This document shows, piece after piece, positions 3,001-9,000 of a DNA stretch of 64,000 nt. The position numbers were made by a program. Each line of letters begins with the position of its first letter. The first letter of the stretch is position 1. The DNA lies in NCBI RefSeq assembly GCF_053078305.1, contig NZ_CP166879.1; one strand, written 5' to 3'.

Positions 3001-6000
3001 CGTGCAGAGAATTAATCTGCATGGTGCGGAACTTAACCAATTGTCTGCGGGAACGGTGCAAAACCAGCACTGACTGTTGTTCTTCTGTTTTAACCGCGAT
3101 GTCCTTACCTGGCTGCTGAACAGCCATCCAGATAGCCCGGGCATCCATCACATCATTCTTATTTCCCATGACGAATGCCTTAACAAAGTGGGCCTGTAAC
3201 AACCGGACTTTATGCCCCAGCTTTGTCAGTTCACGCACCCAGTGCTGAGAGCCTCTACAGGCCTCCATACCAATCAGGCAGGGTTCCCGATTACAGAAGA
3301 ACATCAGAAAATCCTGACGACGTAGTTGCTTATCAATCACTTCACCTGTGTGCTCGTCGATGAAATGAACCTGAATCAGATGTTTTGCGATATCAACGCC
3401 AACCAGTGTATATTTCATTTGTGGAGTCTCCAGTCTGAGGGAGCTTTATGCATCCTGTATTGGACACTATGATGCCGGAAATCTGCGAGGCTCCACACCT
3501 TCCAGTATTTCCCTTCATCCATCACAGAGCACCTGACTTAATGGGGTGGGATGTGTTCATTACATTTCTCCAAATTTTGTTATACCCAGAAGAACCTGCT
3601 TCCCACCTGTGCTGAACTGTCGGGGAACCAGTCCCAGAGTCGCAGATGCATCTCTTCCTCGTCTAAACTGTTTTCCATCCCCCATCCAGCTTTTTATTGC
3701 CTGACTAACCAGAGGGCTGAATCCAGGAATGGCTAACAAGCGTTTGCACATAGGATCTTGGCGGACATATTTTTCAGTTCAGAATCATACCACTCCAGTT
3801 CATTATCTAGTGTAATCAACCGTATATACTGCCGATGCAATAACGTCCTCATGGTATCAGTGAGTTCGTTTTCCGCATCCTCAAGTAATGCCGGTAATTT
3901 TTGGCGTAATTCTGTTGCGCCTTTACTGAACACAATGCCATATTCAGCAAGAAGTCCACGAACGTGATTTATCAGTTGTGTCCTTTCCATCGAAACCAAC
4001 CGGCGCATTTTCAAAAAAGTCTGGACGTCCTGTTACTCCAGAGTTTTTATTGGTACGGGGCGTATAGTTCCATGTTGGCAGGCCTCTGCTATTGCCTGAG
4101 CGTCGTCATAATCATTTTTCTGGCGTCGCTGATAAGCTTTAACATGTTGCGCCGGAAGAAATATTACATCATGGTCGAGTTTCCTGATTTCCCTGGCCCA
4201 GTGATGGGATGCCCGCGAGCCTCCATCGCAACAGTCATTTTGGGCTGTTGCACCAGCCAGTTAAGCAGTTGATTGCGAGAAAGTTTGATCCTTCCTGCGG
4301 GTTTGCCATGAGCATTGATACTGAAAAGATAAAAGTTCGTTTTAGCCAGATCGATGCCGGTGATTTTCTGTTGAGACATGGTATCCCTCTTACTTTTGTG
4401 GTTAAAGTTTATCCATCATGACGTAATTAAAGGTTGTCGTGAAGGAGGGGGAAGACCATCTCATCGCTTACTGATGTTCCTGTTACTATATCTATTGAAT
4501 CCTGGCTATAAGTTCGCTGTTTAAAGAATTATATGAATAGCACCAATTAATAAGTTAATATTAAAAAGAAGACAGACCTTCTAAATAAACGCATTGAATC
4601 TATGTTCCCTTGTGAGTGTTTTTACGTTTGGCGGGAGGCCTGGAACCTCGGGATTTAACTTTTCTTTTTATATTTTTGATAAAATCATCAATAGAAAACT
4701 GAATCGTCTCTGATAAATACTGTTGAGCTATATCTGTACTCTGTTTTTCTAAATCAGAAGCTTTCTTTGTTTCAAGAACAGATTTGATTAACTCCTTACG
4801 TTGTGTACACCAAATCTCGTCAGATGAACAGTATTTTTTATTTTCGTGTTTGTTCATTATTTATTGCTCTAACTGATTTATTTCCCTATATCCAGGGAGT
4901 AGATATATCTACTCCCTGCTTATTATCATTTCACGTTAGTTAAAGATTTTTTTATATTCTCAAATTTGGCTTGGTTGATATCACTGATCGGTTTTTGACT
5001 TGACGTGATGAAGTCAATCATAACAGCCTTCATATTCTTAACTACATCAGGATGGGATGCAGAGAGATCTTTAGTTTGTTGCAGATCGTTGATATCGTAC
5101 AGAGCTAGTTTATTCTCTGCATAGGTGTAAACCAGAGAATAATCGTTGCTTCTTACAGTGTATGCAAACTGGCTTAAGTCTTCTGTATGTGGGTTGTGCG
5201 GATAATCATCAGACTCTTTTCTCACGAATTTATGATATCCGTTCCAGAATGCAGTGTTCTCTTCGTCCCACCAGTGAGAATAAGAGGTAATCCAGGACAG
5301 ATATTTGTGAGGTTCGCCAGCTGCAGATTTCTTATCAGCTCCTTTCTGTACATATGGCAATAATGATACACCATCCAGTTTCAGAGAAGCAGGGATCTTG
5401 ATATCTGCGGCATCTAAAGCGGTCGGATAGAAGTCCATTGATGAAACCAGTTTGTCATAATCACCCGTTTTCAGCTTGCCATTCCACCACATGAACATAG
5501 GTGTATGCATACCACCCGGATACGGTTGGCCTTTGTAACCAGCCTGCGCACCATTCAGTGGCAGTGGACCATCAATTACAGCACCGTTATCAGAGGTGAA
5601 CAGAATGATGGTGTTGTCGTACTGACCTTTTTCCTTAAGTGTATTCAGGATCTTTTTAACCCCCTGGTCAACGGAGTAAATTGACGCATAATAGTTATCA
5701 GCAGTCTTGCTACCAGTGTTGAATTTCTCCTGATAGTTTTTAGGCGCAGGCTGATCGTTAGGCAGGTGTGGTGCACTGTATGCCAGATAAATCATAAATG
5801 GCTGTTCCAGTTTGCTTGCACGGTCAATTACACCAATTGCTTCATCAGTTAATTGATCACTAATGTACCCTTCAGCTTTAATGTTTTCACGGTTACGGAA
5901 CAATGACGGGGAGTTATAAAGTGAAACGCCGGATGCGTGATAGCCCATGAAGTAGTTGAAGCCACGATTCTGAGGTTGCCATTCTTCTGCGGAGAAGGTG

Positions 6001-9000
6001 GTGAAGTTATCGTGGTAGTCACGGGTTTGTTTTTCTTCAGGCACACCTACGTTGCTGATTTTTGATAAGTGCCACTTACCGATTGCTGCAGTGTAATAAC
6101 CATGATTCTGAAGTAATTCAGACAGGAATGTTTCTTCCAGAGGGATACCATCCTGTGCATCAGAATTTGAATATACACCGAAGCGAGCAGGAGCTCGCGC
6201 CGTCAGGATTGCGGCACGTGAAGGGCCAGAGACACCGTGTGCAACATAGCCGTTAGTGAATTTTACACCTTCGTCCATCAGGGCCGCTAATGTTGGAGTG
6301 GATTTTTTTGCAGCTTCAATTGCTTTATCAATACCTATTTTGTATGTATCAACAACATTTCGGTTATCCATCGTTTTAGGGTCAAATGAACTATCATCAA
6401 AAGGCAATTGTCCATACCCTAAATCATCCATTGTTAAAACAATGATATTTGGCTTACCTTTAGTGCTGTATTCCGTCGGCGTGAAGTCCGCAAAGGCAAC
6501 ATTGGTTTTTGTTGCTTTGAGCTTAACATCATCTGCTGCATTTGCAGTACTCATCATCAGACCAGATGCTAATATAAGTGATATTGATGAGTTAAGCAGT
6601 TTTTTATTTAACTGATGTTCCATATGGTATTCCTTCTGAGTTGCATCACGAACATTTATTAATAATAAAAGCCTCTGATATAAATAAAAACTATGTAAAT
6701 CGTTTAAATGGATACCTGTTAAAACTGATACATCATACCAACAGCAAGTATATTATCGGTTGCAACTCCAGCCTTTTTGGTAAATTCGCTTTCATCAATA
6801 AGGTTAATTTTGTAATCAATAAGAAGTGACATGTTTTTGTTCAGAAAGTAGTTTGCGCCAACATCAATATACTCAACAAGAGACTGATCGCCATAGTTTA
6901 CTATTCCACCTTTAACATCCATCCCTTTGGACTGAACGTAAGCCAGTGAAGGACGCAGGCCGAAATCAAACATATACTGAGCCACAACTTCAATATTCCG
7001 TGCTTTATCTGCGATGCCTGCGCTACCAAATGGAGTCATATTTCGGGTTTCAGAGTAGTCAGCTGCCAGATACAGGTCATTATCATTATACTTGACCCCA
7101 ACACCTGCAAACTCCGCATGTTTTCCCCCGGCAATCCAGCGAGGCGTAATAACTTCTTTTCCTTCTGAATCTTTCGATGTCATGAAACGTTTACGGCCTT
7201 CTTTTTCCTGCAGACTGGTTCTGTCGGCATTAGTGTAAGCGGCAACGATTCCAAAACCTTCATAGTCATAGCTTACGGAGAAACCATATCCATCACCATT
7301 AGCTTCAAGTAAATTATCACGGTCATTTTTACCCTGATATTGAGCAGAAAAAGTAAGTCCATCAACAAGCCCGAAGAAATCTGTATTGCGCCAGGTCAGA
7401 ACTCCGGTTGTTCTGCCGGTCATATAGTTATCAGAGTAAGTCCAGCTGTCACCACCAAAGTCCGGAAGTACGTCAGTCAGAGCCCCCACATCATAGGCAA
7501 CACCATAGTTTCGCCCATAATCAAGTGAACCGAGTATATTGTGGCGAATACCTGCAAATGCCAGACGATTTTTATCGTTGCGTACTTCACTTTCTGTCTT
7601 AAACCCCAGGAACTGGTATTCCCACTGACCAAAGCCAGTCAGGCTCTCATTAATTTGTGTTTCGCCTTTGAAACCAGACGTGCAAATGTTCTGTCGCCAT
7701 CCATAGAACCATCAGAGATGTAATGACGGGCTTTAACGCGACCATAAAAATCCAGTTTATTACCGTCTTTATTATAGATTTCTGCTGCCTGTGTTGCCTC
7801 ACACAGCATTAATGCAGAAACGACAGAGCACACAACCATACTTAATTTTCGCATAAAAAAATCCCCTGTGCACATTTTTAGTATGGTTTTAAAAATTAAA
7901 CTATGGCGAAAAAATTATCACTATGCAAAGATGTAACAAAATATTGCTCAGTGATCTATGTTGTTGTTTTTATTTGAGGTTGTATATTTTCTAGTGTGTT
8001 TGACTTTTCTTTCTCAAGTGTTATTTCTTGACCTTTATCACAGAACCATCTCCCTGGATATCCCCATCACATTGCATGAAAAGCAAGTTTTACCAATCTT
8101 GATTTTCAGTGTTAAATAAGATTAATAACTGTAATTCTGCAAAAAAAAGAACACCATATGTAGTATGACTACGTATTCCACTCTGTTCGTTCACGGACTG
8201 GCATCGAAGTCTGAGGTGTACTGGCAATAGCGGATACAGTCATTTGTTCTTTTTTTAAGCATTCATCCGATGATACTTTTCCTGAATGCTACCGGAGTGG
8301 TATTCCCCTGCCGTGAGGGAGGGCGCTGACGGTTATAAAAATCCTGATATATACCCATTCCCGTATGACAGCGATGGCGTCACATCTCTGTTCTACCATC
8401 TTCACAGAAATATTTCGTTCATTAGCATTCCGGTATTCGTATAACCACCTTCGGTGGAGAAAGAATAAACAATCCCTGGAATGCGATGAGCGCTTGACCA
8501 GAAAAGCATCATATTGCTTCATGGCGCATCAGCGACCACAGGATGCCGCAAAAGCCGAAAAACGGACCAGAGCGCCTGCAATCATTCCTCGCCTCAGTAT
8601 CTGTTGCCCATGGAGTGGCCGATAACAGATCATTGTCGGATGAGCCTTATCCCCTTCCTTCCCGGTGGTATCCGGATGTGCTGCCAGCCTTCTCAGTTAA
8701 CCGATGTTTTCCGGGCTTTTTGCCATACTGAGGACTGATAACGTATTCCTGGTCGTAAAACCCGTCAATATGCGCCGGGGCATCGACAAAACTGACACAG
8801 TACGTCCGGAAAGAACTTAACGCTGCATGGCACGACAATGCTGCCTTTGTCTTTACCAACAAGGCTCGTTCCCGCATAAAAGTTCTACGCCGGGATAAAC
8901 ATGGCGTATGGCTGCGTCAGGCCTTCACTACTTCACACCGGAAGTCTTCCACCCTGACACGAATATACCGTCCGGGCTCTTTCGCAGGTGCAAACAGTTT

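Follow-up and report, generated by a model that had tools for sequence, protein, structure and literature searches.

A predicted Ser-type sulfatase of the YdeN family lacking an adjacent maturase gene in a mobile cassette of Escherichia coli

The window, that is, the entire 64-kb stretch of DNA analysed here, contains an intact sulfatase gene flanked by a porin gene and a short orphan ORF (Table 1). The sequence AAGGA is located 8 nt 5' of the sulfatase ATG. The Pfam profile Sulfatase (PF00884) matches residues 58-408 of the product over its full length (1-301) with E = 1.9e-65 and 221.6 bits (cut-off 25). A comparison with PDB sequences yielded 88 matching sulfatases. Ser132 (codon 6230-6228, within HGV-SGPSR-AAILTAR) falls into the same HMMER column as the formylglycine cysteines of 9hh3 and 6bia, both of which have CGPSR. 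The 9hh2 sequence has serine (SGPSR) in this column, and that is its sole difference from 9hh3 in the aligned stretches shown. Residues D66, D67, S132, R136, K183, H185, H286, D345, N346 and K364 are all present and are invariant in 12 family members. The set of metal-binding and catalytic residues required in family S1 (two Asp, Arg, Lys/His, His, Asp-Asn, Lys) is thus complete; we take the roles of these residues to be those of their counterparts in arylsulfatase A. The hydrophobic N-terminus and the A-x-A site are conserved across the YdeN family, and the putative signal peptide is probably cleaved at ANA/AD. The serine at the formylglycine position and the putative export signal characterize the protein, on sequence criteria, as a Ser-type enzyme of family S1. 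The original prediction, a Ser-type sulfatase recognized by its SGPSR signature, agrees with these alignments; it had named displacement of the serine from the formylglycine column and loss of metal-binding residues as evidence to the contrary, and neither is seen.

Table 1. Positions of the sulfatase gene, its neighbours and other features of the island in the window
Feature	Position	Strand	Details and source
Downstream border of the cassette	2399..4379	minus	Intact IS110-family transposase (2399-3418) and degraded IS110-like fragments (3560-4379); ORFs, syntenic annotations
Core of the mobile cassette	4432..8316		99.7% shared with plasmid p14EC033d; blastn
85-aa lysine-rich (basic) orphan ORF	4600..4857	minus	Occupies the maturase position of the family
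Palindromic hairpin	4893..4918		Perfect 11-bp stem; starts 8 nt past the sulfatase stop codon
YdeN-family Ser-type S1 sulfatase (predicted), intact	4926..6623	minus	565-aa ORF, ATG start
Formylglycine signature S132-G-P-S-R136	6216..6230	minus	Ser at the modified position; alignment to PDB sulfatases
Putative Sec-type signal peptide	6537..6623	minus	Residues 1-29 (...STANA/AD), no twin-arginine; read by eye from the translation
OmpC/OmpF/PhoE-type general porin gene, frameshifted	6719..7854	minus	Directly upstream of the sulfatase gene
Upstream border of the cassette	8668..9145		DUF1187 gene and IS66 tnpB remnant, travelling with the cassette; syntenic records
YdeO-like AraC-family regulator	10001..10741	plus	39% identity to K-12 YdeO over 231 aa
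subB	17544-17966		Synteny with annotated NZ_CP046539.1
subA	17983-19026		Synteny with annotated NZ_CP046539.1
tia-like outer membrane protein gene	about 19816-20562		Synteny with annotated NZ_CP046539.1

The closest relative in E. coli K-12 is YdeN (b1498), 78% identical over the full length (565 aa), and the identity to all 11 relatives in the family alignment is 65-78%. Judged by this similarity, the island sulfatase is a second copy (paralogue) of the periplasmic YdeN of E. coli itself. Both proteins have the SGPSR signature, a signal peptide, an N-terminal extension and a 30-aa insert after DDLGY, and both genes have a YdeO-like AraC-family regulator nearby. However, K-12 ydeN is followed by ydeM (b1497), whereas the island gene is followed by the 85-aa orphan ORF. 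It also differs from K-12 ydeN in having a general porin gene directly upstream and in belonging to a mobile cassette, bounded by IS elements, that is found on islands and plasmids. Only two positions of the recognition region SGPSRAAILTARAPARFGVY are different in K-12 YdeN, and each of the two variants occurs in relatives paired with a maturase. A search among 5.8 billion proteins for the donor lineage found no protein with identity to the island sulfatase between 78% and 94%. To our knowledge, YdeN of K-12 has no known substrate. The closest solved structures are carrageenan 4-sulfatases of SulfAtlas subfamily S1_19 (9hh2/9hh3, 6bia and 6b0j; E = 1e-56 to 7e-49, residues 109-429), a likeness that is a best-match similarity to structures and not a phylogenetic placement. 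All catalytic motifs align with these galactose-4-sulfatases. However, they are Cys-type marine enzymes acting on algal carrageenan, whereas the island sulfatase is of the Ser type and has a YdeN-specific N-terminal region, an insert at approximately residues 79-108 and a poorly aligning C-terminal domain of approximately 135 aa.

In all 11 other YdeN-family contexts examined (K-12, Y. pestis, Salmonella, an Enterobacterales mobile element, Aeromonas, Vibrio, a gut metagenome, Leminorella, Iodobacter, Photobacterium and Citrobacter) a radical-SAM gene of 384-391 aa lies directly after the sulfatase gene. K-12 YdeM (505 bits) and the Aeromonas partner (468 bits) pass the cut-off of 349 of TIGR03942, 'anaerobic sulfatase maturase'. 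As these adjoining partners are anaerobic sulfatase-maturating enzymes (anSMEs), the YdeN family appears to depend on anSME-made formylglycine. The window locus lacks this feature of the ydeN-ydeM operon, a YdeM-type anSME directly downstream. Searches with K-12 YdeM and AslB against the whole 64 kb (tblastn) gave a best E of about 0.7, relaxed tblastn with five YdeM orthologues revealed no maturase relic in the 4.9 kb downstream of the sulfatase gene, and no CxxxCxxC motif occurs in the open frames of 150 aa or more in the window. The absence of a nearby maturase gene, observed originally from the sequence alone, thus holds for the entire window. It characterizes the locus rather than the protein. 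The hairpin just downstream of the stop codon has no U-tract on the gene strand, and its role as a terminator is uncertain. An integrative conjugative element makes up the right half of the window.

The porin gene, the sulfatase gene and the small ORF form a cassette bounded by IS elements, which was found in 112 of the 5426 complete E. coli genomes, both on chromosomes and on conjugative plasmids. At least 80% of the length of the sulfatase gene is covered in 111 of the 112 carriers, and the porin is linked to it in 111 of them. The YdeO-like regulator has the NCBIfam model YdeO as its best match (E = 1e-51, below the cut-off). The cassette copy on the plasmid lacks this regulator, whose membership in the cassette is uncertain. 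The intact porin of 378 aa (NZ_CP027586.1) matches Porin_1 with E = 7e-124, with the models of OmpC, PhoE and OmpF below their cut-offs.

More distant alleles of the cassette were also found, with blastn homology covering 4466-8178 in one locus (L020) and 4625-7945 in two others (L022 and L023). All three genes are present in L022 and L023 (runs ERR4193255 and SRR30307916), whose short contigs continue for 0.7-2.1 kb downstream with no anSME; a maturase gene may lie a few kb further away in those genomes. Among the three cassette genes, constraint is strongest on the sulfatase, with dN/dS 0.056 at dS 0.51 relative to L023. As divergent alleles of this age have no adjacent maturase gene and are under strong purifying selection, the orphan state of the sulfatase seems to be old. 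Recent IS-mediated loss of ydeM was considered and rejected, since there is no relic and the three-gene layout is identical in alleles with 14% DNA divergence.

The same data bear on whether the sulfatase might be an inactive passenger that IS activity has separated from its maturase and that hitch-hikes on a young and fast-spreading cassette. Elements or remnants of the IS110, IS66, IS3 and IS1 types do occur on the cassette flanks, the identity of the sulfatase is at least 99% in 109 of 113 records, which leaves little time for decay, and the porin gene in the window has lost one nucleotide of a T run near 7677, which shifts its reading frame. However, this deletion is peculiar to the window (0 of 112 records, all of which have the undeleted form), the catalytic residues of the sulfatase are all intact, no remnant of an anSME follows it, and the low dN/dS of the maturase-less divergent alleles argues against inactivity. 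We consider an inactive passenger very unlikely. The purifying selection, the divergent maturase-less alleles and the anSME genes of the carriers (see below) indicate that the island sulfatase is probably functional.

Since the island sulfatase is a 78% identical paralogue of YdeN, a cognate maturase, YdeM, is already available in the E. coli host. All 47 carrier chromosomes among the matches listed gave three matches to a chimeric query composed of the island gene, ydeM and aslB. Among the 5426 complete E. coli genomes, ydeM was found in 5334 (98.3%) and aslB in 5424 (99.96%). It had been suggested originally that a chromosomal enzyme might mature the sulfatase and that an anSME gene be sought outside the window; the search, done in the other carrier genomes, was positive in each of the 47 listed, and a chromosomal anSME is the obvious supplier. 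The genes ydeM and ydeN share a transcript, and in the mouse gut an E. coli triple mutant expresses ydeM at an increased level (PMC10878103). Expression of ydeM, as a part of the ydeN operon, might be out of step with expression of the cassette. According to reports reviewed in PMC6189696 (citing Benjdia 2007), only Cys-type sulfatases are modified by E. coli grown in the laboratory. The action of YdeM or AslB on Ser-type substrates is putative.

The reading that we favour, and consider fairly likely, is that the cassette encodes a functional, periplasmic, formylglycine-dependent sulfatase of the YdeN family activated in trans. The precursor would be made in the cytoplasm, where under anaerobic conditions, as in the gut, a radical-SAM anSME encoded by the host chromosome would oxidise Ser132 to C-alpha-formylglycine. 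YdeM, the cognate enzyme of YdeN, would be the most likely anSME, with AslB as an alternative. The matured sulfatase would then be exported by the Sec system and would hydrolyse sulfate esters of small sulfated sugars entering the periplasm via the co-encoded porin. The choice of anSME, export by Sec, the contribution of the porin and the kind of substrate are our inferences. The porin frameshift in the window counts against this reading.

The sulfatase might instead be active with no classical anSME, with unmodified Ser132 serving as a weak nucleophile, or with Ser132 converted by a postulated 'third system' of E. coli or by a factor encoded by the cassette. Indeed, for one Ser-type S1 sulfatase, activity was reported after production in E. 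coli and even in vitro, in the absence of any recognised FGE or anSME (PMC8379841), and the small ORF has persisted in the place of the maturase gene over a divergence of dS about 0.35-0.5. However, the third system is described as Cys-only (PMC6189696), and the dedicated anSME in every other context examined in the family argues that anSME-made formylglycine is needed. The 85-aa ORF, whose homologues are confined to the same cassette, is a poor candidate for the cassette factor: it has no cysteine-cluster or radical-SAM features, and it is weakly constrained (72-82% identity to the divergent alleles, dN/dS 0.31-0.37). No Pfam or NCBIfam model matches it. Activity of this kind seems unlikely. 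A related proposal is that the family maturase has been replaced. Either this basic ORF, which occupies the exact place of ydeM and is kept in all alleles of the cassette, would aid recruitment of a host maturase or export, or the Ser enzyme would be activated along a path independent of YdeM and AslB. In Enterobacteria, both would be novel ways of obtaining an active Ser-type sulfatase, and we find this proposal very improbable.

The subAB genes and the tia-like gene lie approximately 11 kb from the sulfatase gene on the same island, and the sulfatase is found together with subAB, tia and espI in the window and in 17 genomes. This co-location could mean that the sulfatase belongs to the toxin and invasin programme of the subAB/tia island as a dedicated virulence factor and attacks host mucin or glycosaminoglycans. 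A role in mucin use was speculated for YdeN (PMC10878103), and the Vibrio homologue is situated among sugar-catabolism genes (ROK, SSF transporter, DUF386). Mucin or another host glycan, as suggested originally, would be a plausible substrate. However, the cassette moves independently: it is present in 13 plasmid records and at chromosomal sites with no subAB nearby, in one setting with none within 15 kb. Pigs, river water and further sources that are not labelled clinical account for many carriers. The periplasmic location and the general porin imply small substrates rather than polymeric mucin, and the closest structures are those of carrageenan galactose-4-sulfatases. A dedicated virulence role is, in our estimate, quite unlikely, and the evidence connecting the sulfatase with subAB and tia is circumstantial. 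Of the original placement in a virulence island, the co-location stands, whereas an intrinsic association does not, given the copies on conjugative plasmids and at a subAB-free site.

The gene order of SE-PAI, in the account of Michelacci et al. cited in PMC7371111, is integrase-shiA-orf-tia-subAB, the orf being a 'putative sulfatase'. This is not the island sulfatase. The position between shiA and tia is occupied by another gene (20739-22241), approximately 13 kb away, whose product is a phosphoethanolamine transferase with the domains EptA_B_N and Sulfatase.

Two questions of E. coli biology are whether the cryptic anSMEs YdeM and AslB mature Ser-type sulfatases and what the role of YdeN-type enzymes is; the cassette is relevant to the former. 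A YdeN paralogue that has no maturase of its own and is under strong purifying selection hints at activation of Ser-type sulfatases by the host in vivo, and the cassette may be a handy reporter for the host gene responsible. Should the enzyme desulfate sugars derived from the host or the diet, the porin-sulfatase unit would amount to a small mobile trait for nutrient access, circulating among STEC, pig and environmental E. coli via islands and conjugative plasmids. The finding is real but fairly ordinary: sulfatases with a distant maturase are common, and a specialist would not be surprised.

The reference system for Ser-type sulfatases is the pair AtsA/AtsB of Klebsiella pneumoniae, a sulfatase and a radical-SAM maturase, where the anSME converts serine to formylglycine. 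AtsA is, as predicted for the island sulfatase, a Ser-type S1 enzyme with periplasmic, Sec-type sorting. However, AtsB adjoins AtsA, whereas the maturase of the island sulfatase must act in trans. In this respect the situation is similar to that in Bacteroides thetaiotaomicron, an anaerobe of the gut acting on host glycans, in which many sulfatase genes without an adjacent maturase are served by a single distant anSME (ChuR/BT0238). B. thetaiotaomicron belongs to a different phylum, and its sulfatase genes occur in PUL contexts. Moreover, unlike in B. thetaiotaomicron, the orphan state of the island sulfatase is an exception in a family whose members otherwise have a dedicated maturase.

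The sulfatase gene (4926-6623, minus strand) is exactly one open reading frame of 565 aa, its ATG preceded by an AAGGA ribosome-binding site 8 nt upstream. The product belongs to family S1 sulfatases (Pfam PF00884, E = 1.9e-65, whole profile covered). In HMMER alignments to solved structures, Ser132 (HGV-SGPSR-AAILTAR) occupies the column in which 9hh3 and 6bia have the formylglycine (FGly) cysteine; this column holds Ser in the 9hh2 sequence, whose aligned stretches shown otherwise match 9hh3. Residues D66, D67, R136, K183, H185, H286, D345, N346 and K364, metal- and sulfate-binding by homology, are all retained. 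Thus the original prediction of a Ser-type sulfatase is supported, and neither a misplaced Ser nor loss of metal ligands was found. The N-terminus reads as an export signal lacking a twin-arginine motif.

The protein is 78% identical over the whole length to YdeN of E. coli K-12, which also has SGPSR. The ydeM gene begins 51 nt after ydeN, and YdeM scores 505 bits against the NCBIfam equivalog model of the anaerobic sulfatase maturase (anSME; cut-off 349). All 12 YdeN-family members compared, from Escherichia, Yersinia, Salmonella, Citrobacter, Leminorella, Aeromonas, Vibrio, Photobacterium, Iodobacter and a gut metagenome, are Ser-type. A radical-SAM gene (384-391 aa) follows the sulfatase gene at a distance of 40-220 nt in 11 of 11 contexts outside the cassette, the partners being 59-66% identical to each other. 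A sulfatase-maturase pair forms a unit on a Proteus plasmid as well (PMC8615141). Thus a paired maturase is the rule in this family, and the window copy is the exception. K-12 AslA (4353-6008 of its contig) has S-S-P-T-R and is also Ser-type; thus both native periplasmic sulfatases of E. coli with adjacent anSME genes are of the anSME-requiring kind.

As originally predicted, the window encodes no maturase: the best tblastn match to K-12 YdeM or AslB has E about 0.7, a relaxed search with five orthologues found no maturase relic in the 4.9 kb downstream, and CxxxCxxC is absent from every open frame of at least 150 aa. The active site is intact, and two anSME genes are available in trans. Of 5426 complete E. 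coli genomes, 5334 have ydeM and 5424 have aslB at no less than 80% coverage. A chimeric query of the island gene, ydeM and aslB, which ranks carriers first, was used to count matching places per record. Among the best 60 matches listed, there were three places in all 47 carrier chromosomes and one in 13 plasmid records, so the suggested search for chromosomal anSME genes succeeded in each of these chromosomes. Around the target Ser, there are just two differences from K-12 YdeN (L for M, A for G), and both variants occur in relatives with their own maturase.

Maturation by YdeM or AslB is the weakest link of the proposed mechanism, since secondary sources state that E. coli in culture matures Cys-type sulfatases only (PMC6189696) and treat the functions of AslB and YdeM as unproven (PMC8379841, PMC6189696). 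An alternative possibility is that the unmodified Ser is active, as was suggested for another Ser-type sulfatase (PMC8379841), or that an unknown factor is involved. If maturation does occur in trans, then, by analogy with AtsA/AtsB-type systems, an anSME would convert Ser132 to FGly in the cytoplasm under anaerobiosis. The sulfatase would then be exported, probably by the Sec route, as it has no twin-arginine motif, and its substrates in the periplasm would be small sulfated solutes that enter through the porin. A porin gene is again found upstream in Aeromonas (Porin_1) and Vibrio (Porin_4).

In RefSeq genomes the gene is always preceded by that of a porin (378 aa, OmpC/PhoE/OmpF-like) and followed by that of an 85-aa hypothetical protein, and IS remnants lie on both sides of this cassette. 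The sulfatase gene is carried by 112 of 5426 complete E. coli genomes (identity at least 99% in 109 of 113 records), on chromosomes in 104 places and on plasmids in 13; 12 of the 14 PLSDB plasmids with this gene are predicted to be conjugative. Window positions 4432-8316 and 8668-9145 are shared with plasmid p14EC033d. The predicted location in a subAB/tia island is correct for the window but not as a feature of the cassette: in strain 2012EL-2448 the latter has Ag43 and toxin-antitoxin genes as neighbours, and subAB is absent within a distance of 15 kb. Thus the association is a property of the mosaic island.

Features of the island and adjacent regions (window positions)
Feature	Position	Strand	Remark
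85-aa ORF	4600-4857	minus
Palindromic hairpin	4893-4918
Sulfatase	4926-6623	minus
Porin	6719-7854	minus	frameshifted
AraC-family regulator	10001-10741	plus
espI-like autotransporter	11654-15745	plus
subB, subA	17544-19026
tia-like gene	about 19816-20562
Phosphoethanolamine transferase	20739-22241	plus	EptA_B_N and Sulfatase domains
Integrase	25319-26503
Integrative conjugative element	about 27-64 kb		traD, TIGR03752-family genes

What the literature on SE-PAI calls a "putative sulfatase" is not this gene but the phosphoethanolamine transferase, the second sulfatase-superfamily gene of the island and easily mistaken for it. An account of pheV islands in LEE-negative STEC gives the sulfatase and porin genes as "GALNS" and "OmpF" but does not analyse them (PMC6174562). 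In the window, the porin gene is split into ORFs of 78 and 256 aa by a 1-nt deletion in the T run at 7677; all 112 records of complete E. coli genomes lack the deletion, which is either a strain-specific pseudogene mutation or a sequencing error. The AraC-family regulator is 39% identical to YdeO, encoded just upstream of K-12 ydeN, and thus the ydeO-ydeN neighbourhood may be present in the island in diverged form; the cassette on the plasmid lacks the regulator. A single intact ORF (1363 aa) encodes the espI-like serine protease autotransporter, for which three separate pieces are annotated in strain FHI_NMBU_10, whose island is otherwise nearly identical. No tRNA gene was detected across the 64-kb window. 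The island integrase adjoins tRNA-Phe (pheV) in related genomes; here the integrase region (25319-26810) is followed by the integrative conjugative element, an arrangement suggestive of tandem elements that share an attachment site.

Homologues of the 85-aa ORF were found only in copies of the cassette, on contigs with the same three genes, and no anSME occurs in the 0.7-7 kb of contig downstream (the two most diverged contigs, L022 and L023, are short). The latter are 86% identical to the window over 3.3 kb of DNA (sulfatase 94%, porin 88%, small ORF 72%). Purifying selection acts on the sulfatase. By Nei-Gojobori estimates for the window and L023, it is under the strongest constraint of the three genes (dS 0.51, dN 0.029, dN/dS 0.056), compared to the porin (0.57, 0.064, 0.11) and the small ORF (0.46, 0.14, 0.31). 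Judging from these sequences, the constraint has held over a divergence that long predates the cassette's spread in E. coli; thus the layout without a maturase appears old, and the enzyme is evidently used. Another allele, on contig L020, is 95.4% identical over 3.7 kb (porin 98.4%); its sulfatase is 99.8% identical, yet the adjoining 85-aa ORF (L020 3665-3922) only 82%, which points to a recombination breakpoint close to the palindromic hairpin.

The nearest solved structures are S1_19 carrageenan sulfatases, specific for galactose-4-sulfate (PMC5066984), and RAST-type annotation names the gene GALNS-like (PMC6174562). A mucin-related role of YdeN is a speculation of one paper, where ydeM was induced in the mouse gut (PMC10878103). 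In a Vibrio alginolyticus-like contig (L014 1-9155), the YdeN homologue and its maturase lie amid ROK, SSF sodium-solute symporter, DUF386, Porin_4 and second ROK genes. These neighbours (a ROK kinase or regulator, an SSF transporter and DUF386) hint at catabolism of the amino-sugar or sialic-acid type, and at the class of sugars on which the YdeN family acts.

Reliance of sulfatases on a distant maturase is familiar from Bacteroides, and thus no new principle is involved here. The cassette is of modest value: it provides indirect evidence that Ser-type sulfatases can be activated by E. coli in vivo, and it lends itself to identifying the activating enzyme. The sulfatase would work like the AtsA-type Ser enzymes, and the protein is a member of the known YdeN-type S1 family. 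It is the locus that departs from the family: there is no dedicated maturase gene, its position being taken by a small orphan ORF, a porin gene lies upstream, and the locus is mobile.
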